A stretch of 64,000 nt of DNA from Pocillopora damicornis (taxonomy: Eukaryota): contig NW_020846500.1 of the NCBI RefSeq assembly GCF_003704095.1, positions 186,001-250,000 on the forward strand. Direction: 5' to 3'. The notes below the pieces were generated by a model, which was not told the origin of the DNA, did not search any database, and saw only the letters and a program-made list of their open reading frames with translations. Numbering within the stretch: the first letter of the stretch is position 1; every line of letters starts with the position of its first letter. Positions 2,204 to 43,497 of the stretch are shown in pieces. Made by a program: the position numbers and the translations under genes.

Positions 2204-5200
2204 CTACAGTTCCCCAGTCGAAGACAACACATCATAATGTTGTTGACTTCGTGCTTCCCCACTGTGCTGCATTCTGTGAGGATTTCTATCGCTGTGGTAC
2301 AATTCTCTCTCCCGCAGATCGCGTGAACGTCTCTCAAAGTGAGCTGATCTCTGAGGAAATAACAGCAAACATACAATTATGTTTTACGGCAATGTAATGA
2401 AGTATGGCGAGAGCGAAATACTTACTCTTTGTGATCCCCCAGGTTGTATCGTTGCGATAAAATTCATCCTCGTCCGCCACTCGCTCCTCTCTTTTTCGAA
2501 CTGCTCCTCCATCTCTTCTCTTTCCCTTTCAAATTCTGCTTTCACCTTGCTTTTTTCTTGGCGGGCTTTGGTCTTCATTTGGGAAAGATCGACATGGAGC
2601 TTTTCGATCTCTTCCTCCATTTCTCTCATTCTGCCTTCGTGATGTTCCTTTTCTCTCCTTATCTGCTCCTGGTATTCATTGTCCAACTTCGCCAAGACTT
2701 GTGCATTATTTTCCATTGATAACGGAACACTGACGTTTGCGCGACCTTCTCTGTTAGACATTTGACTTTGTAGTTGTTTCCTGTGCTCTCGCAGCCGTGC
2801 TATCTCTTGGCGGAGACCTTGTAGTGTGCTTTCAATGTTTTCTTTTTCCTTTTGCAGTTTGCGCCTATAATCCTCTTCCATGGTGGCCTCCATGTCCTTC
2901 TTAGCTTCTGCAAGAGAGTTAGCCTCAGAGGTAGCGTTTGCCAGCCGTTTCTCAAGCTCTGCTTTTTCCGCTTTAAACTTCAGTTTCATTTGTTTCATCC
3001 TTGCTTCAAAATCTCCGCGTAGTTCTTCCCTTAAAATTTCAGATTTTGCATTTTCACTCTTCACTTTTTCTATCCATTCTTCTTCGATTTGATTAATTGT
3101 GTCAAGTTTACACTTTTCCCATATCTGCCTCATCTCTTTCTTTTCATTTTCAAAAGCTTCCTCCATTTCTGCTTTGTCTTTTTTCTGTTTCTTTTTTAGA
3201 TCCTTCTTTTCCTGTTTTCCTTTTTCAAGCTCTTTCGTTAATGCCTGCATCGTGGCCTCCAATACATTCTTTTCTCTTTCGAATCTTCTTTTCATTTCAT
3301 TCCTTTCACTCTGCATTTCTTTTACCTTAGTTTTCATTTGTGCAAGTGCCGTGTTGTATTTTTCTTCCGTTTTCTTTGCTATGTCTTTTTGCTCTTGTAC
3401 TTTCTGAGAAACGAGATCTTGTATTTTGTTTTCAAGACCAGTGCTCCTAGAAGACAAATTATTCGAAAAATCTTGTTTTATTTTCTCTTCCAGCTCTTTT
3501 TTCTCCTTTTTAAATCTTTCGGCTAGTTCTGCCTCCTCTTTCTCGTGTTTTCGTCGGATATCGTCTAAGTGGTCTTCATAGTATTTCTTGTTTTCTTCCA
3601 TTCTTCTTTTGAAATCCTCTTTCAGTGCCTCCTCGAGCTTCTGCGTTTCCTCTCGCTGTCTTTTTTCCAAATCAGTTTTTTGTTTTTCGTACTGCTTATG
3701 AATTTGAGCTAGTTTCTGTTCAAGTTTCTGCTTCTCGTTTTGAAGACCTTTTATCTTGTCATTTGCCTCGGCAATATCTCTTATGGCATAATTTTCGTCC
3801 TCGCTATAACCTTCCTGAGGTGCTTGGTCATAGAAGAGGTCTATTTGTAGATCTTGATAACTACTAATGGCGTCTGGTGGTGATCTTGCATTTCTTTCAA
3901 TTTCTATAATGCGTTGTTCCAACTTGGCTTTTTCTTTCTCAAATCGAGACTTCATGGCCTCCTTCTGGCGTTGAAACTCATCTGCCAACTTCCTTCGTTC
4001 ATCTTCATTCTTCTGCAGGTCGTCTTCGTATCTGGACACAGCACTTCGGAGCATCTGTTCCCATTCCTCAGTTACCCTTCGAACAGCTCCAGCGTTGTTA
4101 TTCAACTCATCCTGCAGTTGTCGGTACCTTTCTCGTTCTTTAGCCAGCTCCGAATTATGCCTTTCAACGAGTTCTTTCGTGTCGTTCACATATTTCTCCT
4201 CTGCTGCCCTTTTTGCGTCTTTAAGAGTCCTTATATCGCATTGGAGATCTTCTATTTCATTGTCCAGTTTCTTGCCTCTTGCCTTTTGCTCTTCCAGACG
4301 TCTTTCAGTTTCATCGATTGCGTTTTTCTTGTCCAGTTCCATAGATGATGTTAATTTGGACTTCTCATCGGCAAACTCTTCCTCCATCATTTTGATCTTC
4401 TTTGTTAGCCGTTCAACTTCGTCGCTGAGATAGGCATTATTCCCTTCTACTTTATTCAGATTTTTAGTGATATCATCGATTTCTTCAATCATGTCGTCCA
4501 GTTTCTTTTGCATTTCGCTTCGCTTCTTTGTGTTTCGAGCAATTTCTTCTTGTAGCTCTTCGTTTTTATCCTCGAGTTCTCTCATCTTAGTCACATCTCT
4601 ACCTACCCTCTCTATCTTTTCCTTCAAATTGATGTTCTCTTCTTCTATCTCTTTATTTCTTCGCTTCATAATGCTGTTGTATTTTGTTACTTCCAAGACT
4701 TTCTTCTGCAGTCTGTTGGTGTCACCGCTGTTATCTTCTGTGAGTGTGGTACTATTCCATGACCGTTCTTCACTTTTAGCGCGGCCTTCATTCATGTCTG
4801 AAACAATGTTATCCCTCTCTGGCTCGTTATACTGCTTTTCTTGTATAGTGCTCTCTAAAAGACCTTCTGGTTCCATGTCATTGAAAGCACCCTCAAAAAT
4901 ACCCGACTCCGTCGTGCTTTCCATTACAGAAGCGATCGTTTCTCTTGGAATATCTGCCATTCTTCTAATTAGCTGTTCATTTCTTTTCCTCTCCTCATCC
5001 AGTTCAGCCTTCAGTCGCCAGTTTTCGTTCTCTCGTCCTGCAATTATTCTTGCCTTCTCAGTTTCAACCGATTCTCTTAACAGTTCTTTTTCTTTGGCGT
5101 GCTTCTCCGAATCTTCAAGCATTTTACTTTTCAGCTGCATTAAGTCTTGTAGTAGAGCTTCGACATTTCGACTGAGCTTGTTTTTTTCCTCTGTTTCTTT

Positions 5201-7684
5201 TCTCAAGCGTTCTTGCAAGTCCTCCATTTTTCGACGAGTCTTGGCTTCCACCTCCAGTTCTTGTTTTTGTAGTTTTTCAACTCGATTATTCATGTCATGG
5301 ATTTCTTTTTCAAAGCTGTTGTTGCACTTCTTCAGATTGACAATAACCGACTCAAGTTTTTCTTTCTTAAAAACTTCTTGTTCTAATTTAGACTCGAGCT
5401 TGCTTACTTTTTCTGTAAACTTAGCTTTGATATCCACCATCTTAATGTCATTCTGACTCAATAATTTGGCTTTCTCTTTGTTCTTATTTTCTGCCTTTTT
5501 CAGGTTGTCTTTCAGGATTTCCATTTCTTCCTCTAAGTCAAATTTCATCTCTTCCATCAATCTCTCCTGATCCTTCAGCATCCGTTCCTTCTCCCTTAAT
5601 GCTGTTTCTAACTTAAGCTTTTCCTTTTCTAGCTTCACGTATTCTTCTTTGGGAACATATTTGTCCAAATTCTCAACGAAGTCGTTGAGTGGATCACTCA
5701 TGGGGGCGTCTTGCAGGTGGTCTATTATTTCACTTAATTTCTCATTTTCTTTCGCCAAGATGGCGATATCTAAAGCGTAGCCATTTTTCCCGGGAGAGCA
5801 GCCATTATTATCATCACTTAGGGAGGCAATTCCCGGTTCTTTTGAGCTTTCAAAACTCTTTACTCCAAGACTTGAAGTCGTAACTTTTCCTTGTGTATTT
5901 CCTCGTTTTAGCCGTTGGTTTTCTTGTTTTAAATTCCTTATTTCGTCCTCGAGTTGAGAGGACTTTAAATTGAATCTTTCCTCGAGGAAATCCCTTTCTA
6001 TTTTGTCCTGCCTATATCTTCGTTCAAAGATCGCTTTTTCTCTCTCAATCTGTCGTATTTTTGCCTGGTTATCCCTCTTCTCTCGCAACATCTCATTGAT
6101 CCTTGCGTCGCTTAAGTCTTTGTCCGCCATCCACTTGCTGGTCTGCAATTTATGGTCGGTACCTGTTCCGTACGGGTACGAATGAAAATCATCAATTTCA
6201 TCTGAAGTTTCGCTGACGGTGTCGGTGAATCCATCGGGGTTATCGTTCCTAAGCTGGCTCATGGCCTCTTTCAGGATCCTGTTTTCTTGAAGTATGTTTG
6301 ACATGTCGCGACCGTCATCGGAAAATATCGATGATAAGTCATCGTCACCATAGAAACCGCCTGAAACTCTATCGTTTGCAAGGAAGTCGTCTTCCAAATA
6401 AGACTCGTAAGTGGCCCTCTCCTTTGAATGACTATCTTGTACCTCATCTCGCGCAAGATCGCCTTCATCGTCGTGTATTTCAGAATGCAATGAAACATTG
6501 TCCATTTCCGACCTTTTCTCCTCATCTTTAATTCCATCTCGTTCAACCGCTTCTGGAATTGATCGGTTTTCCTCATCGTCATAATTCTCCTGTCCTTCCT
6601 GAAAACCACTTTCCCGGCCTTCGACGTCATCAAAGTGTTCTGTGGTCCCTTCGCTTCCCTCGCCATCAATATGTGAAGGTGCATCCTCCACTTCACTAGT
6701 ATTGTTTACCTGAGCGTTTTGTTCGAAGTTGTTATCATGTTGTTGCAAATACCTGTCAGGATTATCGGTTACAATCTCTTCGATTATGCTACGGTCTTCA
6801 TTCTCCTCGTCATCCTCTTGGTCGTTATAGGAGTTTGAATCTTTTTTTTCTAAGGTGCTGTTTTCCACGATTTTGGAGGTTTCAGATTTTTGAAATTCAT
6901 CCTTACTCTCATCAAGATTATCAGTTACAATCTCCTTTTCGACTATGCTACGGTCTTCATTCTCCTGGTCGTCATGGAAGTTTGAATCTTTTTTTTCTAA
7001 GATGCTATCTTCCACCATTTTGAAGGTTTCAGATTTTTGAAATTCATCCATACTCTCATCCAACTCTATTGGCATTACCGAGATATCTTCTTCTTCTTCT
7101 TGTTTTTGTTGATGATTTTTGTCTGCCACATCCTCATGCTCAGTTAGTAAATAGGTGTCCTGTAGATCCCTGCCTGAAGTAGTAGGCAAATCTTCCTCCA
7201 ATACAGAACCCTGAGGTTTAGATTCGAGCTCATTTGACGATTCTGGGTCAGTTGTGCCAGATATTTTCTCTTCCACTGAAAATCCGTCTGTTTCTTGTCT
7301 TGAATCCTTTTCATCTCCATCGATCTCCGCTGCTGACATTTCATGGTCGAGCAAGCCACCGGTGGCCAAGTCAGCATCATTTTCTACAAACGCTGTCGCA
7401 ACATCATCCTCGAGACCTTTAATGGTGTCTTGATCTCCACCTCTGGGTATCTCTAGTTGTGCGCAATCTGTATCCTGTTTTCCTTCTTCAGGATCACTGT
7501 CATTTTCTAATTCATCAGGTTCTTTGTAAGCTGATTCTTTGTCTTCTGGCAGTGCTTCGTTTACTTCCTTGCCTGAGGTTGCATCATCTCCATCGCTTTC
7601 TGTAATATTGGTTTTTTCTGTCGCGACTGAAGTAAAAGAGTCATTCTCCTTTTCAGTAAATCCCTCTTCGGCTGGTTCATCCAT
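2204..7684 (-). CDS. Giant coiled-coil protein A (~1801 aa): ~520-aa D/E-rich disordered head plus a segmented heptad/hendecad rod; 2 coding exons (7684-2426, 2350-2204)
   Basis: 1766-codon ORF. Phase-0 donor CAAAGA|GTAAGT after 2426 and acceptor TTATTTCCTCAG| before 2350 give an in-frame exon 2, RSAHFERRSRDLRERELYHSDRNPHRMQHSGEARSQQHYDVLSSTGEL*. E/K/R/L-rich helical composition; no signal peptide or TM segment. Confidence 0.85.
6755..7060 (-). repeat. Two-copy ~147-nt (49-aa) coding tandem repeat in the acidic head of protein A
   Basis: DESMDEFQKSETFKMVEDSILEKKDSNFHDDQENEDRSIVEKEIVTDNL is followed by DESKDEFQKSETSKIVENSTLEKKDSNSYNDQEDDEENEDRSIIEEIVTDNP; the copies are also near-identical at DNA level. 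Confidence 0.9.
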
Positions 7685-10346
7685 TTAATCAAGGAAAGAC
7701 GTGTTCCAAATTACAGTCAAGCCCAGAAAATTATTGTCAAGCCCAAAATTTAAACTGGTAGTCGTTACTGAAGTTCAGTAATGATTACCGCCGAAAAGAT
7801 ACTCGAGTTTCTTGTTTCTCAATAATGGCAACTTATTCGCAGTACAGAACCAGCAAATGGCAGGGATCCGTGCTTGAGAACTTGCTCAAACTTCTGTTTC
7901 GTCCAGAAATTTCGAACTTTGTTTGGCATAGCTTCGTTTTGTATACAACCCAAAATACCTTTGCATCGCGTTGACGATGTGCCAAGCGCTTTGAAAAGGA
8001 TTTCAAATAATTTATTCCTTTGCAATGAAAAGTATTTTTCTACATAATCCGCGTAATAGTGCTAAACGTGCCATGAAAATTGAGTTCATGGGATGATATC
8101 CAGAAATTACCAATTTCTTGAATAATAAGTATAGGGATGAAAACAGCCACCAGACGAGCAAACACCTCCCTTGCCAAACGTTTGCATGTCAAATATCGCG
8201 TTATTATTCCTAACCATATCCGAGTGCATTTCGCAATGTAGAATTTAGCTTAACGTACCTAATCTTATGAAGTATTTGTCAGTCGAATTCTATTTTGGGT
8301 CCATGCAGAAAAAGTATCTCTGTATATACCTTTAGACTTTGTTTTCGTTTTTTCACAAGCCAAATTCTTGAAACCTCAAAACCGCAATTTTTCATTTGTA
8401 TGCATTTGTAATTTGTATGCACCAATTTGTGAGTGAAACCTGTTGTTTTTGCAGACAACTGACTTTCTTGTAATTCGGTATTTTTCTAAAGTAAAATATA
8501 TTTTCTTTTAATGAATTTCCAAGCTGTTGCCGCTGAATCTTTTGCTAGAGCTTCAAAAGAACTTTCGAAATCACTAGCACACACTTTAGGTCACTTTTTG
8601 AAAGGCAGGAAACCATTGCTTATTGCTGGTGGCAAAATCCGAAAACAGAACACCTCCTTTAACGATACCATAATGTGGTGCAGACTAAAAACATTGTTCG
8701 AGAATATCCTTAGTTACTTGACCAAAACCTGGTAAAATTGTATTTTGGCTCATTTCTGATGACTGATGTTAACTTGTTAGTTTTCGTCGTTGATCAGTCT
8801 AATGGATCTCATTACTATCTCATGAAAAAGTGTATTTTTATATATATATATATATATTTTTTTTTTTTGTTTAATTTACGGGCTAAATATCCTTTTATCT
8901 CTCTTGGAAATGTTCACGGCAATAGTCCTAAAGTAGAGATAACCCTGTTCATATTTTCGCGTTTGCTTTATGCGCTCCAATTCAGTTATTTCTGATATTC
9001 TATCTTAGCTCATACCTGTAGGAAAAGCTGTGATTCGTACATCTCTTTTTACTACTATCAATATGACCATTTCTGCTCAAGACTGAGGCATATTTCTAGC
9101 TCTAATACAAGCAAAGTCACAAGCTTTGGACTCATTGTTTACTTTTAATTTATCGCAGGCGGGAGTGGGGGTGTGACACTTAATTTTTTTTTTGTTTTAT
9201 AAACAAAGAAGAGTTAAATTGTACTCACTTTTGCATAAAAAATGAATTATTGAAATGATATTTCTGCAGATTTTTTTTTTTAATAACTTCGAAATAAGTT
9301 CTCGTTATCGATTCCATAAATTCAGTTTTGTTTTCGGCTGACTTTGCGACTGACCCCAGGTATATAACCAATGAACGCGATTGAGAAGGGAATTACACAT
9401 GCTGAAGTCGACAGAATAAATTGGCCATTATCCGAGAGCCAATCAGAAACCAAATACTCCTTTCTTGAAAAGCGTAATTCAAGATGTCTTATTCTTGTTA
9501 TGTCAAAGGGTTTTCTTAAGTGCTTTGAAAATAATTTTCATTTGGTCGAATGCAAATGCCTTCACTGCCTTTCTTCTACGCTCAAAAATGTCAAAAAAAA
9601 TACCAGCCGACGTTTTGAAAAGAATGGTATCAAAGAAATTTTCCTTGTTTCTTACACTTGTTAATAATTTATACCAATACATACTGAAAACGCCTACGAC
9701 AGTTTTTTTAACTTACAAAATGAAAACATAGGCGCCGAAGCTGGTACACGTAGTTTTTGCTTTCAGTAACTTTCCAAGTGATACTGTAAATTGCACCGGG
9801 AAATTGGTAAGCGATTCTTGCATAAGTGCCCGGGAAGAGGCCTCTAGAGGATGTGAGTTTTCAGTCTTCGTGCGGTGGGAAGATAGAGTGCGAGAAGCGT
9901 TCCTATAAGTGTTGATTACGCAAACATTAAATTAAAAACGTTAGAAGATACCACTTACAAAGAGTCACGTCACGCGTGTTCCGTATTCTATGGTCGACAT
10001 CCTGTCTATCAGGAATTCTCTGCACCTAAAACGTAAATGAAAATCAATTAGTTGTAAAAGAAAGCAGAAGAAAGTTGGCAAGGAAACTTGCTCCGCAGCG
10101 AATGATGAATACATGATAAAGTATTGCCACCATTCGGTGATAGGTTAAACAAAAGATTACGGAAATTGTGTTTTTCTGCCTGTTATTTTTCTTGATAGTT
10201 CCGTCTTTGAGTAAGATTAATTTGAAAGTAAGGTGGAAAATTAAATTCTCAAAGCTATGCTCGACTTCCTGCATTACTAAGAGTAATCCAGCGTATGGCA
10301 GGCAAGCATACACGTTGAGCAACAAATAGTTTTGATTAGATGTAAG

Positions 10347-10410: not shown

Positions 10411-11838
10411 TTCCCTTACAGTAAGAAATCATCCCCGTTACCTTCTTATCTCCATAATTGCGCAGAGGAATGACATCATTTTCCAATTCATATTAGTATG
10501 CAGAATGCAATCCAATGAACTTTAGTTCAAAGACCCGCCACTCTTATTAGAAGATCCTAAACTCGATTCCCGTAGCGATCACTTGGAATTTCTTTCCAGG
10601 ATATGGCAGTATACACTATTACTTGACTTTTACAGCACCCGTGCTCAGTCAATTTTCTTGTGTTCTCTTGGCAAGTCCACGTAACAGGATAGAAAACTTG
10701 CTGGGGTATAAATTTCCTTAAACCATTCTCATTTTCTTTGGCTAGTGTCCCTATGAAGTTGTCAGCATTAACAAATATCCCCCCTCCGCAATTTTTTCTG
10801 TGATATAATCAGCCTGTCTATTGTTGGACACGTCAACGACTTCCTTAGAAATAACTTGTCATACTTTTCTTTTATTTTTTTTTGTACACTTTGTCCCACG
10901 CGACAAGACAGGACGAAAAAAATCTTCTCTACTTCTCTTTTTATTCGCCAAGATTAACTTGTCAAGGAAAATGTTCTCACTGAATACTTCGCTCAAGTCG
11001 TGGCTCTTCTTCGCGTCTTATTAGCATGTAGCTTATCAAGAACTGGTGCGTTTGCGAATAAAAGTTGTCCTTACTAAATTGTTTTTAGAATATTAATGCT
11101 GTCTGAAATGGACAGGTGTTGTCAGCTGTATCAATATAGTTAAGATAGAGGGTCTCTTACCTAGATACTATCTCATGAGGAAGTTGCGCAAGAAACACCG
11201 ACAAGTATTTTTTGGGTTTTTCGTCTTACTTTATTCCAAATCTTAGTAGGTAAGTTTTCCTTGAGATGTATTATGCTCATTGGTGGAAAAAGTGAGGTTA
11301 TCGTCATTTTATCGTCGGGTTGTCGTCTCAGGTTATCGTCTCAACGTGAATATTGTTCGATTGAGAGAGGTTCCGCATATTCTACAGCTGTCTACGTATT
11401 CAGTCGTTCTTGAAACTGAATTTAACCTCAAAGAAAACTTTCCCCTAAATCTAGGCTTGATGATATGCGATGTACTTTCGTTTAAAAAAGCAACCTTTTT
11501 GTAGTAGTTAGAGAAATACGTCATCGATATAGATGCAAATTTGCTCTGTTATAAATTTTGCCCAGTGTTTAAGCATGCTAATTGCTTATCTTGGCTTGGT
11601 TAACGAGGCAGGCATTACCATGGAAACTCAGTGAGGCTAGTATCTTTTCTTAAAATACATTTCCAGTTTACTCAAACTAAACGAAAAGAACTGATATGGC
11701 TCTAAAAGGATATTCTCACCTTATCTGTTTTCAATTAAACCAACTCGAAATTTATGGCACGCAGTTAAATCTTCATTAAGCATTCTGATGGCTTAGTCAA
11801 AAGAAAATCATCAGCTTTTTTTAGAGTTTTAAAAAAAA

Positions 11839-11880
<42 letters not shown>
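11839..11880 (+). repeat. (AT)n(AG)n compound microsatellite
   Basis: Directly visible. Confidence 0.9.
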
Positions 11881-12781
11881 CACCATTGTCTAATAGCTTT
11901 AATTGTTAAAGATTTTCCATGTTACGCAAAATCTAAAAGCGAAAGTATCATAATCTATGATGTTTATTTGGCCTAACATTGACTAACATTTCATGAAAGC
12001 TCCGTCATACAGAGGAAAAGCGATAGCAAGATTAGCCGCCCATTTTTGCATGTCTTAAATAATTTAGCCGCTTTTTGTGAACGTGTTTCATTGTGAGCAT
12101 CAATAATGCATGCCACTTCAAGATGAACCAACACTAGAAGAACCTTAATTTCGCAGAACCAGTTTCAACTTCCTATCTGTCGATCACAAGAGAAGAAACT
12201 AAAGAAGAAGAGAAGAAGAAAACAATTCGATCTTCTCAGTCGCATTTCGATTAATCCCTCAAAAAACTAACAGTTCTTTAAAAAAAGACGGAACATGATC
12301 CTTCTTTAGGCGACGCTTGACCAGATGACGCCATCGCCTGAAAAAAGCCGACAAATGTATGGAAGTGACCGCAAACAAATAACCTATCGCTTTGCATGTT
12401 AAACTTCCCGATCAACTCTGTAAAAAAAATACTGAGGTTGATTACAAATGGATCTTTGGCGGTAGAATGTTTATCCATGAGTGTGTGTTTGGAAAAAACA
12501 GTTTATCCTCAAAATCTCAGACCGGGCTACGCAGGCTTAAGTAGGGACCAGGGAACAGAGAGCTTGAGAAGTAATAGACTCAAAATAGATGGTAAAACTG
12601 ATCCACGCTTTCGACGCAACAAAACAGACAAATTTGTTTTTCCCAATTTTTTTGATGCCATATGGTTGTTTGGTTTCTATATATAACAAGTGGTGTAATT
12701 TATTGGCGGCTATGTAGTGACATTTCACAAGTTCCCATCCGCGTGACCTCCCCTTTATTTAGGAAATATTAATTAGGCCTC

Positions 12782-12965
12782 TTAACCCTTCAGCCTCTAA
12801 GTAAGAGTGACTAACATCTAATTTCTCCTTGCAGTATCACCCCTGAATCAAACATTAAGGTCGTGAGAATAATGGAAATGATCAACAAGTACTGGAGCTC
12901 TTGATTGTTAAGCAAAATCTCCTTATCAGAACTTTAGGAAATGTATAGAAAAAAGTATGGAGAAT
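12782..12965 (+). mobile_element. Truncated TTAA-type (piggyBac-like) MITE
   Basis: Begins TTAACCCTT and carries AATTTCTCCTT/GGAGAAT internal motifs like the element at 55321-55533; the right terminus is missing. Confidence 0.5.
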
Positions 12966-15900
12966 CGCGGGTGTCCTTCGGGAAAAAAATTGCACGCGCG
13001 CTAGCTTCACTTAATCCAACAAACTATACAACAGAAGAAAGCTTCATAACTGTGGGTTACGATAAAAATATGAATTAAGCGACTCTTTTTTTTCAAGGAA
13101 GTGTCAGGAGCTGGTAAGGTGTGAAACGACCGAAAGTTTTTCAATTGAATTTATCTGGTATCGGATGCCGCAGCAAAAGCTAAGTGACTGCTCAGTCTTA
13201 TTCACAAGGCAACAATCAACGAAATTTTGTCAGGCTTTTTCGATACTCTGCTTGGTTGTCTAGTTATCGGCATCTTAAGTGGGAGTAGCTAAAAATATCG
13301 AGGCGAGTTGCGTATATGGACACCACGGGACACATATTTCAAATATCGAAGTTTCTCGACACACTTTCGTTTCTCATTATTCCCGGAATGTTTTGGCGAA
13401 ATTTGACGAAAATCGGTCAAATCTATATGCTCTATAAATTCTCTCAAAGTGGTCGTATTCCTCCCAAAATCAAATGCGAGATTTTAGCTCATAAAGGTTC
13501 GCAAACAATTCGCGCCACGCCAGGAATATTCCCATACAAACTCTTATAATTTCGCCATGGCTCTTATTTCACAAGATGATCATCTCACAGCTGGAGCTTG
13601 GGCCGCCTGTAGACGGAGCTACTGACACCTTTTTGTGTAGTGTTACAACAATTGACAACTCGTTTTCTACAGTACACGTATCCCAGGAGTTAAACGGCGG
13701 TCACCGAATTAGATTTGAGTTCCTTTTACAAGGACATAAAGCAAACATTGCTAACATTAAAGCATCGATCACCGAAATGTCAGTACCTCAGCAACGTGTA
13801 AAAAAAAAGTTTCGCCTTTCCACCCACAATTTATGTTGTTGTCTACGTTTGGTAAAACCGACAAAAATGCAAGAAGCAACATTTGTGTCAGACAGTTACT
13901 ATTGTGCTTTGCACTTTTAGTCGATTGTCCACAATTGTTGAAACGTTGAGAAAAAATGATAAGAACCACGTGATGGAGGCATTATGTACCTCTCATAAAG
14001 CAATTTTTCTAGGAAATATCAGACATTGAAAACGACAGATTTGTCACATATTAAAATGGTAAGGAAGCCATCAATACATCCTTTAGAATTTGACAAGTTT
14101 TGAGAACAGTCTTAAGAAAAGAAAAAGAGAAAGTGTTACAGGCCTTTTTGATAACGTGATCCAGTTTTCTCAGAGCCTTTATTGGTCGAATATAATGATG
14201 TGTGTATGCTTATGAGAGTGCGATTGTAAACAAAAGTTTTCCTATAATAATTGACGATCTCCTAACTAGTACATTTAATTAATTACGTTTTTCCTTTCAA
14301 CAATTTTCCCTTCCACGATTTTGTCGTACGCTACTTTTTCGTTATTTGTCATACCCTGCTGTTATGCTGGAAATAAAACAAAACTTACAAAGATCATGCT
14401 CGAATTAGTAACCTCTAAAAAGAGCAGTGGGAAGCAATTTATCGGTCTATTGCCATAGCACGACAGGTGAATCAAATTAATTTTCCCTGTCGGTGCTTTA
14501 CTTCTCTCTTTGAAAATCATCATTCATCTCCCGGTGACGAAAACGCAGGAATAATAAGCAGACGAGTTTGAGAATTTTCTGTGTCTACTGCTTTTTTTTT
14601 TTCATTAAAAATTAGCATGTAAGATGCAAGTGGCTGGATGTTTGTCAAAGAGCCTTTTGTTTAGTTCCTTGAAAATGTCCTCCTGAAGGTCTTGCAGCCA
14701 GCTGCACATCTACAAACTGTGCACAATATACCCACCAACATTTGCATATTGGTTTCATTGTGGAACAAAGCACGGCTTGTGTTCTCGTTCGATGTTCACC
14801 GAAAAATATTGCAAAGGCGTAATGATGGAAGTAGCCGCCATTTGAATCAGTTCCTGTTATCCAAGGTGTGCTAAAAGTTAACTTGGCATGTTTCTGGTGT
14901 GAGAAGCTTTGAAAATGTCTAGTGCTGAGTTACATTCGGTGATAAATAAGGGTTTATCTTCTTTCAGTTGCTTGCAAACATCTTCCTACTGAGAAAACTG
15001 CCAAACACAAAAAGCAAACAAAGAGCTAAAAAGGCTAGACGAGAAAAAAGCCAGACTTCTAAACGACTCGAAGACGTAGGTTTTGAACCAAAATGATGAT
15101 ATGCGGCTTACGAAATCGCTCCCTCTTGTTTTGCATGATCTCAGTAATTACATATAGGATATTTTACCACCCTATGAAGTAAACTCATCCATCAAGGCCC
15201 TATAACGTTAATTCTTTATATTTGACGTACTGTTGTCTTTACGACTACATATCGTAGCCAGATTTCGATACTACTGAGCTTCATTTCTATAGCTTTACTA
15301 AATAATATGCTGACATTCTGTGCGTTTTGCACTTTTAGTTTGTAATACCAGCTCATGTTTTAATTTTTCACCAAATAGACAGCTTTTTTTCCTCTGTCGG
15401 TTCACTCTGTTTGACCTTGTAAAACCCTTCCGCGACATACCGTCTAGATTACCACCGTAAATTTTTAATTGTAGAGGAAATTCGCATAGGCATCTGAATA
15501 AACTTGCTATGTTTGTTGATCTGGCAGAGTTTTATTTATCTACTTACTTGCTGTTAAGGCGAAAAAACATCATCTCGATTTTAAAAATCGTACAGGCTAC
15601 CTGCTGGTTATGAATACTCTTTATTCTGTTGCTTACTAGGATTCTGCCAAGAGATTTACACAGAACGACCCATTTGGCTTCATCCGGTGTAAGTGCTCTC
15701 TTTTTAGTCATCTTTTTCATTCATTTTATTTTGTTTTATGTGAAAAATGTGCGATTTGAAAGGCACAAGCGAGGGCTTCCCTCGATTTTAAGAGGCATTC
15801 AAGTGCATCTTATGTGAACATGATTAACTTAAAAACAATTAAGACGACGGCAAAGCGAATAGAAAAAACTTACAAACAAAAAGGAAGCAAGATTTTCCCA

Positions 15901-16319
15901 CTGGAAAAACAGCGTGCACAACAAGCAAAAGGAGAGCACCATTTGAGGGTACATAAATGAGGAAATTGCAAAGTCAAACTTTTCTGTTTTCTAACTATTA
16001 AAGATAACAGACAAAAATTTGATGGTAATACTACTCAAAGGGTTTTAGAGAAAAAAACTATTTGTAGAAATCACTTGGCCCCGTTGATTTGCTTCAAAAT
16101 TTTCAAAAAGTGACCACTTTGCTTGTATCTTTGCAGTACCTCAGCAGAACAATTTTTCCTGAAAATAAGAAAGATCGTACTTAAATACTTTCCTTGACCT
16201 AACCCTTTTCTCTGAACGCAATTTGAAGGTTGATAACAGTGTTATTGATTTTAAAAAATTTTTGCGCTATCAGGGCTTGCACCCAAAAGTCGCACCTTTG
16301 GTTGCATAATTAACCAGTC

Positions 16320-16470
16320 GACTGTGGTTTAGTGTGTTCTGTACTCTTATCGACAACGATATTCGTTGTCAGTGGTCAAAATGTTGTGGACTCGCGAGGT
16401 TCAGCTGTATTCTGATCGACAACGGCAAATTCGCTAATTAGATTGCAACATTACTGCCAATTGTGGTAAA
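16320..16470. mobile_element. Degenerate interspersed repeat (MITE-like)
   Basis: GTGTTCTGTACTCTTATCGACAACGATATTCG...GATCGACAACGGCAAATT with an internal ATCGACAACG repeat; I recall this as a common anthozoan repeat but cannot verify it. Confidence 0.35.
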
Positions 16471-19283
16471 GAAGGCGATCCATGCCTGAAAATATTCATG
16501 TTGCGTTTCAAAATGGAACTCGTCGATAATCAGCTCTATTTAGCGACAGTCACAGTACTCATTGAATCTCTCCTTGTTTTGTAGCGGAAGTAAAAACCTA
16601 AATTAAATTATGATTTGTAATCTTTGTAGTTACGTAAGCTTAGTGTTCATAATTATCGATCAAGAAATTCCTCGGCAAACTCGTTTGGATTGGTAGAGAG
16701 GAAAATTCACTTTAATTTTACGGGAATTCTCCTTTTAAGACAGCGGTTTTAGCCCAGTCCTAGCCCAGTTTGTGTCGCGAAATATTTTCGAGATAAAAAC
16801 GCGGTCTTCGATTCGCCGAAAGAATCAATATCCTAAAGCCTCGTCTTAATATTGGTAATCCGTGGTCAAATTTACATATATTTGTAATATTATCCTTTTG
16901 AGCGATTGGCATCCCGCTGTTTTCGATATAAACTTGAGCACAACGATAATAGTACCATAAGCATGATCAGGTATCGGGAGGTTATTAACAAAGCCGCCAG
17001 TGTAAGATGTGGCACTCTAGTTGGTTTGTTTCCTTCTTTAAGTTTGAACCAAAATCATTTGAAGCACCATACATGTTCAAGGTAGTAATAAGCTCGTGTG
17101 AATCATATTTCTAAACGTTCCAGCAGTTGTAGTAAGTCATGTCTTTTCTATGTTCAAAAAACTGTTGACATGTAACTTGCGTGTGATACTGCAACTCGAG
17201 GATATCTTCGCCCGCGCTGTTACGACAGCTACATATCACACATAATTTTTAACCGCTAAAAGTGCAAGTCTTGTTTGTAAGAGAAACGTATTTATCAAAT
17301 GTTATCGCCTTGCCACAATGGAAATGATGAGAGAGAGTTCCTAAGAACCGTCTCGGTTCAATGCAAGTGAGGTCGAATTAGAAACGATAAGAATAAGTGA
17401 TTTATATTAGGAATGAATATCTCTTTAATTTTATTGACAGGTTGAACCAGATTTTACAAACAGGAAGGGTGTCTATAGTGATATTTGCTAAATCATCTAG
17501 ACGTCATTTGGGTTAAATTCTGTAGAACGTGACCCGGAAAATTGAAAAATCCTTCAACTTTTTAATGCTATTTATTACGTTCCTTTAGGAACGAGCTTTA
17601 TTCAAATACCTTTCTTTGGTATGGGACGCACTTGAATTGTTCTAACTGCTTTCGTGATGTGGACGCAATACTTTTTCCTCCATCTAGTGTGTGGGAAACA
17701 CAATGCGTAGATTTTCTGTCGCATTTGTTAGTACTAATGCAAACATAGCATTGTGCCCTTCTTTCAACTTTAAATGTTTTGAGGATCATGACACCATATC
17801 TTGTTTCAAACTTTTTAATATGACAAAGCCATTTGTAACTTTTCTTTTGTAAGAAGCTATTGCTAAATTTCATTCTGTCAATTTTGGAAAGCATAGTCTG
17901 ATGGTTTCGGCAGGAAGCTTTGTTTTAACTTTTTGTTTTGTGATGAAACTGTTTTGAACTGTATGCCAGATTAGGAAAAACAAAGGAGATTTACATCGCA
18001 ATAAACAGTTTTCAATCTTTAAATGTAGGATGTAGAGGGGAATAAGAAAGTTATGGCATTGAGTGACCAAACTTAAATTCAGATATTCATTTCAAAATTG
18101 TCCTTATATGAAAGTTGTCTAAGAGTCACGAGAATTTTTCATTAACATCTATTCGTTTCCATTTATCTGAAAAGTTACAAACAAAACGTGTTAAACAATA
18201 CCTCTATCTACCTTCATTTTTTAAAAGCATTCTGAACACTTTAAGTGGTTTATCGTTACCAACCACTCGCACGCAAACTTTTCAATCAACACGTGTGCAG
18301 TGATCTTCCGGGATTTATTCTAGTCCTTGGCATGTTTATGTTCTTTCAGCTTCAGATTTGAATTTTTTAATGGATCAAGTTATTGAGATTTTATTTCATA
18401 AAGTGCGTGCTCTGTTTTCGTTTTAATATGCGACTTTGTGCACGTTTGTGACAGAACATATAATTGCACCTGCTAATACCCTTTGTAAAGCAAAGGTTCA
18501 TCTGCTCCTCAATCGGTTGATAGTTCAGGCATTATCGAATTCTGAGTTTTCTCGCAATCTGTTCAGCAACTATGGATCGTCTACTTTGGGAACTTTAGTC
18601 GTTTTTCGAACAACGGGGAACTGTGTACATTAGAACAGATTGCTTGCAAACGTACATTTGGATGTTTACATTGCTAGAATAATATTTCAAACCACTATTC
18701 GTGACCTTCTCCTTTCGATATCGAGGAAGGAGATCTTCACAGGGGCTAAATGATTGAGGTAAAAATTGTGAGATATTTTTAAGGGGAGGTTATTGCCCAG
18801 TCATACTGGTACTGTTATCAGAAGACTGAAGTGTCACAAACGCCTTCTTAATTATTTTTCCTTTCCTTTTACGTTATTGGAAAATCCCACCTGCCCAAAA
18901 CTATTTGTTAAACTCAGCTTGTTTTAAGACGTTTGACTTTCTACGTGTTTATTTAAGAAAACGCAAGGCATTACGGGTGCAAATTACTCGTCTTTCTCGC
19001 TTTAATCACTCTACATATTTTTGACCATTCTCTTGGTGGGTGATACAATGTTCCCACTTGAGGAGGTAGAATTTTTAAGTTTCTACCTCTAAGTAACGGC
19101 GAACTCATATTTTGCACCTCACAACGCGCTGTAATAAGCGCGAAGCAACGAATCAACTGATCGCAGATTCAGTTTTGTGTTTATGGTTTCTTTCAGAGGG
19201 TTTGTCCGTCACCACATAATCAGCTTCCGCCATACTTGTTAACAGTTTTAAAGGACTCTTCGTCTGAGCAGAAGATCTTCAGC

Positions 19284-20474
19284 ATGACCGAGGTTAACAC
19301 TGGGATGACTATCACTAACTGTACTTTTATGGTCGACAGCGTCGATCGACGGAAACATCTTGCTCCGACAAACACCGCTGTTATCGTATTGAACTCTATT
19401 TTCTCTCTGATAGCTACGATTCAAAATCTTCCAGTAATTTACGCAATTGTGCGAACACCTTCCCTGCACAATCCTCCTTATATCCTTTTGTGCTCGTTGG
19501 CTTCGACGGATCTTCTCGTCGGATTTATCATTCAGCCTTTGTACATCGCGCACAATGCCATTCTCCTAAGCGGGCAACAATTCAACTGCAGCCTTTGGAT
19601 GACGAAAGAGACACTCTTACTGTTGTTTATGTTTGTATCTATCTCGACCCTGGTCATGATAAGCACTGAGCGTTGGCTTGCGCTCCATTTTCACCTCAGA
19701 TACCGTGAAATTGTCACAATGTCGCGGACGCTCAAATCGGTTGGCTCAACTTGGTTCTTTTGTACTGTGTCGGTTATCGCGTGGCCTGCAGGGCTCCCTA
19801 TTTACTACTTCACAGCAATCGGAATCGTTGTCATAACGATAGCTGCAATTTTGCTGCTTTTCATGTACATCAAAATATTTCTGGTGCTTCGTCGACACCA
19901 AGCTCTAATTGACAACCAAACCAAGCTTCATCCTCAATCAGTCAGCATAAGGAAACATAGGAAATCTTCCGCCACCATGCTTTACGTTGTGGTTTTGTTC
20001 TTCATTTTCTACGCGCCTACGTTCTATGCTATGATTCACTATTTACATTCTAAAGAAAAAACGGCCAGCGTGGAGCAGACAATTTTATGGGAGGTGGCCA
20101 AGACGGTGGCGTTAATAAACGCTTCCGCGAACCCTGTAATGTACTACTGGAAAATGCGGGAATTGCGACGCGCCGTCCAAAATGTGTTTGGCTCTACGTC
20201 CGCAACACGGGTTCATGTGGGAGATGTTATCACCCCTGGATCAGGGAGCATGGAGAATGAGTTTAGGAGTAGAACAGAACATCAGCGGCAAGGATCGTTT
20301 TCGCTTAGACCGCGAGTAAGCTGGTCGAATACTGCTCTTTCTAAACCAGATCTTCGTGAAGATCAAAGTTGCTCGGTAACGAAACCACCGGAGAAAAAAG
20401 TGTTCCTCTTGCCGAGATATCTCGAGCCTGGCCCGAGCTTTGGATGGCAAGTACCGTCAAGCAGCGATAAATAG
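19284..20474 (+). CDS. Class A (rhodopsin-like) GPCR of the cnidarian adenosine/melanocortin/histamine-receptor-like expansion; single coding exon, 396 aa
   Basis: Seven hydrophobic segments; TM1 QN, TM2 LASTDLLVG, TM3 STERW (E/DRY variant), TM4 W, TM6 FYAP, TM7 NASANPVMY, helix 8 ELRRAV. First ATG is at 19284; the acceptor TTTCTTTCAG ending at 19196 suggests a 5' UTR intron. Confidence 0.93.
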   Translation: MTEVNTGMTITNCTFMVDSVDRRKHLAPTNTAVIVLNSIFSLIATIQNLPVIYAIVRTPSLHNPPYILLCSLASTDLLVGFIIQPLYIAHNAILLSGQQFNCSLWMTKETLLLLFMFVSISTLVMISTERWLALHFHLRYREIVTMSRTLKSVGSTWFFCTVSVIAWPAGLPIYYFTAIGIVVITIAAILLLFMYIKIFLVLRRHQALIDNQTKLHPQSVSIRKHRKSSATMLYVVVLFFIFYAPTFYAMIHYLHSKEKTASVEQTILWEVAKTVALINASANPVMYYWKMRELRRAVQNVFGSTSATRVHVGDVITPGSGSMENEFRSRTEHQRQGSFSLRPRVSWSNTALSKPDLREDQSCSVTKPPEKKVFLLPRYLEPGPSFGWQVPSSSDK

Positions 20475-22445: not shown

Positions 22446-22760
22446 TTAAAAAATAGATGCGAGCGCAGTTTTGGCAGCGTCTGCAGCATCTTCAGCAGCT
22501 TCTTTAGCAGCGTCCGCTGGTTTTTCTTCCTCTTTGGATTCAGCGCCCAACATGCCGCCAAGGCCACCTGGTATCTTAGCTAACAGGTCCTCCTTCCCGT
22601 CTCCTGCCAGCTTCAGAACCTGCTCCAATTTTTGCCGTAATTCGTCACATTGTGTTTGCAGACTAGTAACTTCGGCAGCTTTCTTCGATAGATCTTCTTT
22701 CAAAGAAGCTGCCTCGGCAGTTTTCTCAGCCAGTTGTTTCTTAATGTCTTCTTCTGCCAT
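22446..22760 (-). CDS. Small 104-aa A/E/K-rich helical protein (N-terminal coiled coil, Gly hinge, amphipathic Ala-rich C-terminal helix); function unknown
   Basis: Coding-like composition; AAAATGG start context immediately after the acceptor TTTTCGTTCAATTTTAG; minus-strand AATAAA at ~22061-22066. Confidence 0.75.
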   Translation of the reverse strand: MAEEDIKKQLAEKTAEAASLKEDLSKKAAEVTSLQTQCDELRQKLEQVLKLAGDGKEDLLAKIPGGLGGMLGAESKEEEKPADAAKEAAEDAADAAKTALASIF

Positions 22761-38013: not shown

Positions 38014-41000
38014 ATGGACTCAGTTGAGCAGGAGCCGGAAGCGGCTTATAGCGGAGAGTTGGCGGCTGAGAGTTACCTGGACTTTGAAACAGAACTGCCC
38101 CTTGACTTTGACCCGACTTTCTATGAGAGTAACTATCAACAGCTTCTCAGGGATCGTGATGAGCTCCGTTTTCGATACGAGCGTGAAAAGAAAGACAGAG
38201 AATCTCTTGAGATCAAGTTACATCAAGAATTTGACCAAAAGATACATTTTGAAGAAAACTTGTCGGAAGTTTCTAGAAACCTGGCGAGTTACGAGGAGGA
38301 GCTTCGGTCACTGCGCCTTGAAAATAGCCACCTGAAAGCGCAGTTTAGCCAACTCAGGACGGCCATCCAGACAAGAGTGAATTTGGGGACCGCAGCAGCG
38401 ACGCAAGGTGGATCAGAAGGGGCATCTTTGAGTACTAGCGGTGGCGTCTTTCTGTCCAGTTCCTCTGGTGAAGGTTCCTTCTCGGGGAGCACTGAGATGT
38501 ACAAGCAAGAAGTGGCCTTACTGGCCCACGAAAACGAGCTTTTTAAGCAAATCATCGATGTAATAGACAAACAGGACTACAGCAAAGCTATACTTGAGGA
38601 CAGAGTTTCTGAAAATAACAACCAGAAGCTTAGGTTGTTTGAGGAGGAAGTAATAAGGCTAGAAAGGGAAAAGTCGCTACTGGAAGATCGTGTGAGGGAA
38701 CTGGAAAGATTCACTCAGGAACAGGAGCGTCGTCTAGAGGAAGCGAACAGCAAGGCCGAAAGTGATCTAAGGGTTTGCAAGAGAGAGAGTAAGGTGTTAG
38801 AAAATGAGCTTTACTCGAAGTCTGCTGTTCTGGAAGATTACGAATTTCAAATGTCACAGATGAAGCAGGCGTATGAAGAAGAAATTCATCAGGTTGAGAT
38901 CAAGCTTGAAATAGAGATCAGCAACAATAAACAACTTCAAGAACAAACTCATCAATTGGAGGAGAATATCCGAAAAATCGAGGAAGAAAGAAAAGAAATT
39001 CTCCTAAAAATCGAAGAAGCGTATAAAACGGAAAACGATGTAATTGAGGAAAGAACCACCCTTGAGGAAACGTACTCACGAGATGTCAGTGAGTTGCGTA
39101 GAAATATTGAAGAGGAAATCCAAAAGAAAGCTGAGTTGTCAATGGAAATAGAACGGCTAATGGCAGAATTAATAGAATCTGACAGACAAAGAAAGGAAAT
39201 GGAAGACAGATTTTTTCGTGAAGCTCAAGAACTTAAACTTCAGTTTGAGAGGGAAAGAGAAGAAATTATCTCCTACGTAAATGGATCAGCAGTCAATCAG
39301 TATATGATTCCGTCAAACTTGATGCAGCAAACGCACTCATCATCTCAACTTATTTCCGGTGGACAGGGACAACTCTCAACACAAGAAGATGGAAAACGGA
39401 AACTCGAAGAAGAAATTCGGAAGAAAGAGAGGCTCGAGGAAGAAAACAAGAAACTCCTGTATCAGATTAACGAACTGCTTGAGCAAAACGTTTCTGATGG
39501 AGGTTCCACAACTCGAGTAAAGGACAGCATGACTGCAACGTCTCAGTCGACGGGTAGCAAGCAAAATTTGAAAGAGCTGATGTACGAAATAAACGAACTG
39601 AGAGAAACCTGCCAAATATTGGAACGAGAAGCTAAGAAAAAGAAAGAAATAGAAAATAAAAACGTAGAACTGTCAGAGGAGATCGAAGAGCTAACGTCCA
39701 AGAAAGATGACATGATCCGTAAGCAGAGAGAATTAGTAAAGGAGCTGGACAATTCGTTGTCATCCGTGCAGCAAGTGGAAGATAAGAACAAACGACTGAC
39801 AGAGGACGTAGAGAGTCTCTCAAGGAAAATCAGGGAAATGGAGGAAAATTTCAGAAATGAAAAGGAAGACTGGATGAGAAATTTCAGTAAGGACAAGACG
39901 TCTCAAATTAACGACATCTTGAGTGAAAAGGAAGCACTCGAGAAAAAGTACAACGAGCAGGTGAAAGTTAGCAGAAACATGGAGGCCGAGATCAATTCCC
40001 TAGAGACGAGAATTTATGACTTGGAAAGGTTAAACGAACGTCTAGAGAGGAAGAAGAGTGAAATAACGGCTCAGCTAACAGAGGAAATCAATTTTGAGAG
40101 GAACAGAGCTAAAACTGTTAAAGAGGAGCTTGAGAAGAGCGTTGAGGTATTTAAGAAGCAGACGGAGCAACTGGAAAGCACTTTGTACGACAGGAAGAAG
40201 AAGTATGACGAGGAGATTAGGACCTTGGAAGAAGAGAAACAGCGAGTCCGAAACGAGTTTGACAACGAAAAGGAGATATACAGGCGGCGTTTTGAGGAGG
40301 AGAGAAAAACAATGGAACGACGAATAAATGAAATAGAGGAGAGATTGAGGAAACAAAACACGTCCAGTAGCGAATTTGTATCAAATCAGATTGCTTTGAC
40401 TTCTGACGAGTTTCCTGCGAGTAACACTATTAATCAACCAGGAGTAAGTACGGCTTCTCAGAAAACAATAATCGAGCTAAAGAGTAAGATAGATACTCTT
40501 ATATCTGAGAAAAAAGAATTGCAAGAGAATCTTTATGATGCAGAGAGAAAGTACAGCCGAAAATTTGATGATATGGAGTACGATAGTGATCAGAAGATTA
40601 AGAAATTGAGAAGTGAGATTGAGGAAGAGTATAGACGAAAAATAGATGACTACGAAAGACAAATCGACAACCTGAGGAAGACCGACTCGTGTCAAAGGGA
40701 TTCAAAAGATATATATCAAGATGGAGTTGGAAGTATGGCTGAACTGGTGAGAGATCACAAAGAGCAGATGGACGAGTTGAGAAGACAAATCAAGCTTCAA
40801 TTGGAAGCGTTTGAAAGTGAGAAACAAACCCTTAAGAAGGAGCTGCAAAACACTACACGAATAAAGGATGGTGAGCACAGATGTCTTCAAAACACCGTGC
40901 AAAAATTGACTGAGGAAGTGAAGAAGCTGAGGCACGAAAAAGAGACCCTACTGAGCAAAATTAGAAAGGGGAAAGGAAACAACAACAGCCGAATCAAAGA

Positions 41001-43497
41001 ACTGTCAGAGGCCGTGACGAAAGTTCGTGAAGAGTGCGATATAAGACTTCAAAAAGAGAGAGAAGGTACCCAGAAGTCCATGAACGAGCTTAGAAGGAAG
41101 CTCTCTGTTTCTGAAAGCAATAGACGAAGCCTCGAGGAAAAGCATCGGAGAGACCTTCATCAACTGGAGATTAAATTCGAATATAAGAAATCAGAGTTGG
41201 AACAAGATACGACGAGCATAGAGAGTCAGTTAAGGGAAAGTCTCCAGCTGGAATATCGAGTTGCTCTCAACAAAGAAAGGGAGAAATACGAGGAGACTTT
41301 GCGCGTATTGAGAAAAGAGATTACGTCTCTGCAGGAGCAGCGAAAGCAAATTCAGCTTAAGCTTTCTGATCAGGGAATACAAAGCACCTATAGCCTACTC
41401 CTCAACAAAGACTTTTCTGCGAATAAGGAGTCTTTTCTCAAAACTGAGCTGGACATGGAAATGAGAGCCTCACGTGGAAAGATGGAAGTCACAATACATG
41501 ATCTCGAGCGAGAGATAGAATTCTTGCGAAAAGAGAAATATGATATAAAAGCGAATTACAAGCAAGAAAGAGCCCAAATGCAAGAGGAGTTTGATAGAGA
41601 AAGGGATCGTCTGGAGGAGAAATACAAAAGACAAATTGAAGATCTTAAAAGAAAACTACAGGCAACTGCTGCTCAGATGAAATCAACGACGCTAATGGAC
41701 TCAAAATTGGTGAGTTAAGCATTAATTTATGTCTACGCGTACTATTCTTTCAAGTCTGAGAGGAACAATTAAACAGTTAGTCGTCCTCTCTCAACAAGTG
41801 CACTTAATCTCTAGTACTCATTCATGTTTTGAAAACCTTTTTTCATTATGTCTTCTATAATTGGAAAAGCTTTCCTCTGAGATCTCAAAATACAAATATA
41901 ATTATGTATTTAATTCCAGAGCAACGGATTCGCGAATCTCAGATTTTACCGGCTCCTCCCTTTGAGTTCAACCATCTTACTACTTGTTAATGTTAAACAG
42001 CTAGACCAGGAGGATCCTCCCAAACAGCTTAACTCTTTTGGAAGCTTCAGTTAACATTGTGACTATTTTTCTAAAAAAGTTTCCGAAATTTATCCTTTAT
42101 TTTGATTCCTTTCTCAGCGATACTCCGCCAGTGTAACTGAATCTCTAAAAGACAAGAACTTGACCTTAGAAGCGAAGAGGAGTTCATTAGAGAGCCAGAT
42201 GAATTTTCTTAAGGGGAGAATGGACGACATTGAAGAACGTCAAGCGCGAGCTCTCCGATCAAAATCCAAGAAGGTTAGTGTTACGAATTTTTAGTGTTTG
42301 GCTGCCTTACCCTCCCTTTTGTCTTCAACCAAAATCTTCTCTCTTTACGATTAGTGCTGCTCATGAAATGTTCCAATTTTCTGGCTTCCGTCACTGCTGT
42401 AAGCAGCCTGCCAGGCTTACTGAGTAAGTAATTAATTTAATTGCCGTTCTGTCCTTCTCCAGGCCACTAATGTAAGGTTTTCCCCAAGTCTGGAGAGAAG
42501 CCGCGATCTTGGTCGTCACTCTGGAAGGCTCTCATCATCAATGTTAGACCTAAGCTCGAGTTCTCTACAACGAAGGGAAAAATCTGGAACTCCCAGAATT
42601 GCCTCCAGATTGCAAAAACTAGCAAGTTCGAGTCGAGAGGCTAAAGATAGCAGGTCTTTTTTAAGCCAATCACTTCATGATGTGCGATCTGTAGGGCAGG
42701 GTTCCAATACAAGAAATGATCAGTACCTAACCAGTCGTGGTTATGACATCGGAGGTTCTTCTTCCACAGCATCAGCTCTTCAGAGTGGTCTTACGTCCTG
42801 CGCACCTGCTCCTTTTTTTCATGCGAGGTCGTTAAGTGGTGGGTTTGACGCTACACGTAGCAGCACCCTTTTACAGCCAGGAGGTTCTTTTCGCAGTGAC
42901 CAGTTATTTCTACCGTCCGTTGGAATCTTAGGTGGCCTCTCCCAAGCAAGAGAATTCGGCGCACTCAGGGGATCAACGTTTGGTGGCTTTGGCGGTGTGA
43001 GTGGATTGAATTCAAGATTTGGTTTTCAACGGGTTATGTCAGGGCCATCTATATATGGCCTAGGTATAGCATCCGGTTTTAATGGCGGCTTGCATCATTC
43101 CGCCAGTCTTGGCAACCTTCATCAACAGTTCTCATCACAAGCTGCAGAAGTTTCCCCGCGACAAGCGTCCAAGGAGATTAGTGGTAAACTTGACGATGAA
43201 AAGGCGTCTGATGACACTCCGCGTCAAGTTATATCTTCTGCGGGAGCCGAGGTTTGTGAAGAAAGAAATACCTCTCATTCAGCAGGTGTTCCCGAAAATG
43301 ACTCAGGCAATGGCCACTCGCAGGAAATCCCATGCGTAATTGAATCAGCTGAAGGTGAATCAACCGCTCTTCCTGAGAAGGACCAGCCACAGGAAATTCC
43401 GTGTGTAATTCAACCAGCTGAAAACCAAGAAGGTTCCCAAGAAGAAGTGATCGGGTCGCCAATTCCACATGCTGAAGAAAATTCTCCAGAAACCTAG
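38014..43497 (+). CDS. Giant coiled-coil protein B (~1628 aa), paralog of protein A, with a Ser/Gly/Phe low-complexity tail; 3 coding exons (38014-41709, 42118-42273, 42463-43497)
   Basis: 1234-codon ORF with donor TTG|GTGAGT at 41709; acceptor TTTCTCAG| opens exon RYSASVTESLKDKNLTLEAKRSSLESQMNFLKGRMDDIEERQARALRSKSKK ending |GTTAGT; acceptor TTCTCCAG| at 42463 is in frame with the 42541-43497 ORF. All introns are phase 0. Confidence 0.87.

Follow-up and report, generated by a model that had tools for sequence, protein, structure and literature searches.

The closest described counterparts of the genes treated here are the cytoplasmic intermediate filaments (type I/II keratins; nematocilin/cytovec, 'Cilin', of cnidarians), intracellular proteins that are encoded by clustered paralogues and combine a segmented rod of about 310–350 amino acids (aa) with low-complexity ends, including Gly/Ser/Phe tails. 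Ninein/NINL and FAM184A/B are likewise long, E/K/R-rich segmented coiled coils, ninein having a large rod exon and an N-terminal EF-hand region; rootletin/CEP250, CEP290, the golgins and the myosin rods are similar in composition and length, and the fused-type trichohyalin/S100 proteins have a giant final-type exon, clustered genes and E/R/K/Q-rich helices. Here we describe a 64,000-nucleotide (nt) stretch of the genome of the stony coral Pocillopora damicornis (RefSeq assembly GCF_003704095.1, contig NW_020846500.1, positions 186,001 to 250,000 of the forward strand), called the window below, in which two divergent genes, A and B, encode giant-exon coiled-coil proteins. An earlier note on this DNA likened them to an obligate heterodimeric filament pair, as formed by type I/II keratins. 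Judged from their alignment, the paralogy of A and B is real, and both belong to what is apparently an old, clustered and undescribed family of six giant head–rod–tail coiled-coil genes, in which an exclusive keratin-like pairing of A with B is not supported by the sequences.

The coral family shares the head–rod–tail plan with low-complexity ends, which fits the earlier suggestion of an independent structural family, and differs from intermediate filaments in its rod of about 1,100–1,250 aa and in lacking an acidic/basic pair. The Filament profile (PF00038, 313 positions) gave no match in A, B, C, D or the part of E that was searched, and a genome scan for Filament led to four places on contigs C2045 and C808, none in the family clusters. 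The rod-end motifs LNDR and YRKLLEGEE, which the earlier note reported as absent from A and B, were found in neither A nor C, but B carries one loose match (LNERL, around aa 673) in mid-rod, and D, E and F have single loose matches off the rod ends. In a Pfam scan of A, B, C, D and part of E only sub-cut-off matches were obtained, no assignment to a characterised family resulted, and the Filament and FAM184 loci of this genome lie on other contigs. Rootletin/CEP250, CEP290, golgins and myosin rods differ in that the coral proteins have no matching Pfam family over cut-off, and trichohyalin/S100 fused-type proteins differ in that the coral family has no S100/EF-hand head and does have a clear hydrophobic coiled-coil stripe. 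Public gene models are named 'CEP290-like', 'golgin A4-like', 'myosin-10-like' or 'trichohyalin-like'; these names are generic, since orthologues of one gene are named differently across species and no Pfam family exceeds its cut-off. 'Trichohyalin-1 and -2' of Hydractinia are given as nematocyte markers in one paper (PMC11876637); with respect to the coral family they are no more than a lead.

Structure of genes A and B

Gene A occupies a long open reading frame (ORF) on the minus strand (2384–7684 in the window) and gene B one on the plus strand (37996–41718). Their parts are as follows.

2426..7684, minus strand: giant coding exon of gene A, 1753 codons, with acidic head and segmented coiled-coil rod and a phase-0 GT donor at its end
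2351..2425, minus strand: intron of gene A, 75 nt; joint 2350/2426 present in RNA contigs of four out of four studies
2204..2350, minus strand: final coding exon of gene A, 48 aa and stop, for a total protein of 1801 aa
1545..2203, minus strand: 3' untranslated region (UTR) of gene A, with AATAAA near 1566 and no joint toward gene C
2450..3322, minus strand: family module in A, about 290 aa (aa 1455–1745), common to all six paralogues in whole or in part
38014..41709, plus strand: giant coding exon of gene B, 1232 codons, with a 40-aa acidic start, a segmented coiled-coil rod and a phase-0 GT donor
40816..41688, plus strand: family module in B, aa 935–1225, with three long helices predicted (2–51, 56–194 and 201–290)
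42118..42273, plus strand: exon 2 of gene B, 52 aa, adding a further short coiled coil; a prediction based on splice sites and on models of orthologues
42463..43497, plus strand: exon 3 of gene B, 344 aa and stop, a G/S/F/R-rich tail followed by an acidic end; predicted

The acidic head of A comprises aa 1–515, with a net charge of -118 over these 515 aa, and is followed by the segmented rod (aa ~516–1748). Compared with Acropora, the rod is 56% identical and the head 29%. The 3' UTR is covered by single-piece RNA contigs reaching 1545–1547 in two runs and by two pieces in each of the other two, while upstream of the ATG the contigs run on unspliced for 370–620 nt in three of the four runs. 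An alternative 5' exon at 9959 was seen in one run; it is spliced to position 7626, which lies beyond the first ATG. For B, a three-exon protein of 1628 aa is predicted from splice sites and exon-by-exon mapping of the Stylophora and Porites models; about 230 aa of its last exon are rich in G/S/F/R, and 114 acidic aa follow. The closest relative of B, from Stylophora pistillata, is 89% identical. In these respects the description in the earlier note was accurate: both rod exons are closed by phase-0 donors, and the acidic head of A and G/S/F tail of B are present.

Relationship between the A and B rods

Alignment by BLASTP joined A 572–1745 to B 89–1220 with 26% identity over 1228 columns (E-value 1e-56), some 1,120 rod residues being aligned at 26–28% identity. 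The Smith–Waterman score was 1048, as compared to 390 for reversed B, and the highest values reached in 40 shuffles per scheme were 355 for full shuffling, 391 for 20-aa windows, 361, 454 and 568 for blocks of 7, 28 and 56 aa, and 414 when heptads were preserved. Five other coiled coils of the same genome, three of them taken from stretches of C, D and F that lie beyond the best matches of these proteins to A/B, scored 28–404 against A, each under every B window of the same length. All the shuffled and unrelated coiled-coil controls proposed in the earlier note thus remained below the A–B score, and its claim that the rods align along their length stands. The six quoted peptides that were checked by script were all present, and the remaining quoted pairs can be seen when A and B are aligned by BLASTP.

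A family of six genes

A query with the middle of the B rod retrieved, as one of three matches among 116 candidates, gene E on contig C2263, which ranked above A (E-values 1.5e-32 vs 4.7e-21), and a query with the module of gene F recovered six family loci among 28 candidates scored. Genes C, A and B lie on the window contig (C3135), C starting 4.8 kilobases (kb) beyond the main ORF of A, and the other three, D, E and F, with 2106, 2519 and 7198 codons, respectively, lie in tandem on C2263. The members located outside the window include the following.

C3135:179553-183575, same strand as A (minus): gene C, just outside the window
C2263:85686-107279, minus strand: gene F, one uninterrupted frame of 7,198 codons in a 21.6-kb exon
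C2263:77840-81496, minus strand: gene E, head region, with repeats rich in Gln/Glu/Met over about 1,200 aa and a net charge of -211

A degenerate internal repeat occupies aa ~3,200–5,200 of F, and an orthologue of 5,516 aa exists in a distant lineage. Directly downstream of C is a single-exon F-box gene (C3135:172490-173620, minus strand) that can be used as a synteny marker.

What the six genes have in common, together with an in-frame GT donor near the end of each giant frame, is the module of about 290 aa, present in whole or in part; it is C-terminal in A, B, D, E and F, whereas in C it lies close to the start. E provides a third full rod, as similar to A and to B as these two are to each other; it has the same three-exon plan as B and a Gly/Ser-rich tail, in addition to the acidic repeat head of 1,200 aa, whose length varies among relatives. 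Pairwise rod identities are 28.5% for A–B, 26.1% for A–E and 29.9% for B–E, with scores of 1044, 997 and 1101, respectively. In a tree of 43 modules the six genes formed six orthologue clades, each with a Shimodaira–Hasegawa-like approximate likelihood ratio test (SH-aLRT) support of 95–100, and a branch with 97% support set A apart from the other five, so that B is not the sister clade of A; the three clades of A, B and E were found again in a second tree, made from 27 of their rods. Both trees were made in quick mode, are unrooted and carry SH-aLRT support only, the second one keeping 27 of the 43 rows, those of C, D and F and the unassigned ones being left out.

Linkage and taxonomic range

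The earlier note proposed conserved linkage as a check, and linkage is indeed indicated well beyond Pocillopora, as judged from locus tags and from equal contig sizes taken as a proxy. In Acropora cervicornis, A (P5673_007649) and B (P5673_007651) are on the same contig, two locus tags apart, and in Stylophora B (SpisGene12110, XP_022794325.1) and E (SpisGene12098, XP_022794321.1) are 12 gene numbers apart on a scaffold of 505,985 base pairs (bp). B and E share a single chromosome in both Montipora species, with A there too in M. foliosa, where a fused A+C model is the sole evidence for linkage of C outside the present genome; for D there is none. In a distant lineage, one contig of 228,799 bp carries A-like (28% identical), B-like (34%), E-like (37%) and F-like (45%) proteins, and another contig, of 426,375 bp and likewise from a distant relative, combines A-, B- and F-like proteins. 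Five of the 14 A-homologue rows on contigs larger than 50 kb recur, by equal contig size, among the B homologues; the unmatched rows are uninformative because only representatives are listed. The linkage of the cluster is thus apparently old, with at least four members linked in distant relatives. The anemone Actinostola carries B, which implies that the duplications predate the coral–anemone split, hundreds of millions of years ago. This anemone B ends in Gly-Met-rich repeats, suggesting that tail character is kept while the sequence changes.

When the rods of A, B and E were combined into a profile, 84 matches at an E-value of 0.001 or lower were obtained among 1.84 billion representative sequences; 78 were classed as family members or pieces thereof and six, which were weak (E-value 7e-5 or worse), as unrelated and of microbial type, a division made by us from best matches and reading. 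The named family members are all from hexacorals. Exon-sized pieces that are 25–45% identical to B and E look like exons of an intron-rich homologue intermediate between these two (P0270, P0272, P0296, P0299–P0302, P0304, P0306, P0307, P0311, P0318 and P0319). Four of ten aligned pieces stop at the same residue, and two start their homology after the same dipeptide. It may be that the family reaches beyond the hexacorals and that the giant exon is a derived trait. A metagenome scan with piece P0272 yielded 64 pattern matches, none of which was confirmed, and a search of PDB sequences with the module profile gave 15 weak matches (E-values 0.001–0.01; haemagglutinin HA2, a piece of keratin 10, LmuB) that we consider coiled-coil noise. 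A literature search, which included six accession numbers and covered papers outside subscription, supplements excepted, found no description of the family, and the accessible parts of PMC8162421 (main text of the Stylophora atlas), PMC4300403, PMC8846589, PMC13581030 and PMC13044578 contain nothing on it.

Possible function and alternative explanations

We propose, with about an even chance of being right, that the six paralogues form an intracellular fibre scaffold of cnidarian cells, in which hinged dimers are joined via the shared module and several members mix without a fixed A:B pair. Each rod would form a parallel two-stranded coiled coil of about 150–170 nm (the rise of a coiled coil being 0.148 nm per residue), hinged at the Ser/Gly/Thr breaks, and the shared module of about 290 aa would act as a common site of assembly or anchoring. 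On the model of the ends of keratins and the side-arms of neurofilaments, the Gly/Ser/Phe tails of B and E would bind filaments together and the fast-evolving acidic heads of A and E would space them apart. Linkage could have been retained through co-regulation in a single type of cell under mechanical load; the rods of desmocytes and the supports of cnidocytes are guesses. Hydrophobic peaks at 3.49–3.67 in 11 of 13 rod segments point to heptad-to-hendecad coiled coils, and the predicted model of the module consists of three long, bare helices (pLDDT, the local distance difference test in its predicted form, 86.8; predicted template modelling score, pTM, 0.33). No membrane span was found in the six proteins (maximum 19-residue hydropathy 0.47–0.95), nor was a signal peptide in a simple hydropathy scan (maximum 9-residue hydropathy of -0.13 to 0.56 over the N-terminal 33 aa). 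The coral acid-rich skeletal proteins (CARP/SAARP), which are secreted, carry a signal peptide, and a secreted role in the skeletal matrix was rejected on this basis.

Several observations weigh against the fibre scaffold. Packing of keratin or myosin is driven by a long-range charge period, and no strong one was detected in the coral rods (powers up to 11.2, scattered periods). The rods of both A and B are net acidic, C, D and F have the rod only in part, and the closest language-model look-alikes are centrosomal and tether proteins. The linkage proxy described above is indirect, and about one third of coral genes are tandem duplicates, tandem clusters being common in corals according to PMC10236652, so that linkage alone is no proof of co-regulation. 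What is said of polymerisation, partners, localisation and co-expression is a proposal.

A role as a centrosome, basal-body or ciliary-rootlet scaffold like ninein, FAM184 or rootletin, possibly with descent from such a gene, appears rather unlikely to us, even though it has some basis. Ninein (0.92, 114 of 256 features) and FAM184A (0.91) are the first matches of the B module in the language-model search (Atlas), and the precomputed label Ninein_long_CC (PF27974) is attached to one of 42 B homologues. In addition, a 'trichohyalin' that may or may not belong to the present family is described as ciliary in a paper on the larval proteome of a coral (PMC12960093). The feature overlap in the Atlas search is low, however (114–126 of 256), with two of the ten best matches agreeing on a family, and the N-terminal rod of B (35–330) gave an unrelated mix of coiled-coil families. 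In the Pfam scan of A, B, C, D and part of E, moreover, made with a profile set that lacks PF27974, there were neither EF-hands, nor a FAM184 domain, nor any other match over cut-off, and neither ninein nor FAM184 is evident among the profile matches, which apart from the six weak ones were classed as family. The sole over-cut-off match to FAM184 (PF15665) in the genome is on contig C1282, outside the clusters, in an exon that reaches 181 when aligned with A and 163 with B, as compared to 321–475 for windows of B against A.

It is improbable that the proteins are non-polymerising long tethers or spacers with separate jobs, the linkage being a relic of old tandem duplication. The abundance of tandem duplicates in corals, the lack of a clear charge period and the large differences in size (frames of 1.2–7.2 kaa, i.e. 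thousand aa) and layout would suit such proteins. They do not explain so well why four members are still together on one contig of 229 kb in a lineage that is 28–45% identical, or why the shared module is under constraint in all six genes.

Compared with the mixed scaffold that we prefer, an obligate A:B heterodimer like that of type I/II keratins is scarcely probable, as already indicated. The rods are collinear with linkers at similar places, linkage of the two genes is kept as far as Acropora and in five of the 14 A-homologue rows mentioned above, and the total gap length is small for A–B (149; 146 for A–E vs 213 for B–E), with gaps that are multiples of seven more frequent in A–B (6 of 23) than in A–E and B–E (2 of 28 and 2 of 27). 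Of the register-matched rods of the earlier note the collinearity thus holds, but the match in register was overstated, since the alignment requires 23 gaps, of which six are multiples of seven. Against exclusive pairing, B–E scores above A–B, A and B are not sister clades, and four further paralogues exist, among which E matches both rods equally. The net charge per 100 aa is -2.0 for the A rod, -3.0 for the B rod and -0.3, near neutral, for that of E; since the rods of A and B are both acidic, there is no acidic/basic pairing. As E has an acidic head and a Gly/Ser tail alike, the argument from complementary ends is removed. The head-to-head arrangement is correct in that the genes are divergent, but their ATGs are 30.3 kb apart with a receptor gene and a 104-aa ORF in between, and they have no adjacent promoter region in common.

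That A is merely the opening exon of a protein of 3,563 aa continued in C, as in the public models XP_027051825.1 (3563 aa) and XP_068692417.1 (3806 aa), which fuse A with C (window 2204–7684 and C3135:174802-183575), can practically be dismissed, since no RNA joint leaves the last exon of A and the contigs run into its 3' UTR with AATAAA, the peptides by which the two models connect A to C bear no relation to each other, and the Acropora model has A separate. The fused model was rejected and A and C are taken as separate genes, although rare read-through could escape because contigs drop rare variants; per piece, a Pocillopora RefSeq model is 77–100% identical to the A and C region.

Other features of the window

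Two features separate A from B.

11246..20474, plus strand: gene for a rhodopsin-type seven-transmembrane G-protein-coupled receptor (GPCR), ORF 19161–20474; not a family member
22449..22760, minus strand: 104-aa ORF, acidic, helical and Ala/Glu/Lys-rich with a short coiled coil; putative gene, no Pfam family over cut-off

The probable 5' exons of the GPCR gene follow from joints 11246/15637 and 15688/19197, seen in one run only. Since these exons reach 11246 and the alternative A exon is at 9959, the nearest divergent neighbour of A is probably the GPCR gene; the two 5' exons are on opposite strands about 1.3 kb apart (9959–11246, one run), which would allow a shared promoter. From 23980 to 37606 there are direct and inverted duplicated segments of 84–98% identity around four 100-N gaps, which may represent assembly redundancy, and because they lie beside assembly gaps the distance between A and B may be inflated. 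A short repeat element at 12674–14007 is covered by RNA contigs at very high depth, with numerous loose ends. Downstream of B are a multi-exon gene with several pentraxin/laminin-G-like exons (46179–53188, minus strand), a 430-aa low-complexity ORF (56916–58208, plus strand) that had no Pfam match and has similar ORFs downstream at C3135:250140 and 254100, and a chromo-domain ORF (60556–61140, plus strand), perhaps part of a mobile element.

Significance

A single type of cytoplasmic intermediate filament is reported for anthozoans in one study (10.1101/2025.08.21.671432), yet cnidarian cells hold dense filament rods, such as those of hydroid desmocytes, which are compared with the coral ones in PMC3114865; we found no paper that names the rod proteins. 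A wider and more tentative possibility, to which we give well under an even chance, is that corals and anemones possess a filament cytoskeleton of their own, unrelated to lamins and keratins, made by an ancient cluster of six genes whose products co-polymerise via the 290-aa module and fill the role that cytoplasmic intermediate filaments have in bilaterians, for example in skeleton anchorage or the bracing of stinging cells; the giant exons would then have arisen by intron loss before the cluster expanded. The family has been masked by five generic annotations and one fused model, and its gene identifiers can now be checked in single-cell atlases. If the proposal is not true, what is left is still an improved annotation and a gene cluster of unusual age; if it is true, a keratin-like system would have arisen independently within the animals.

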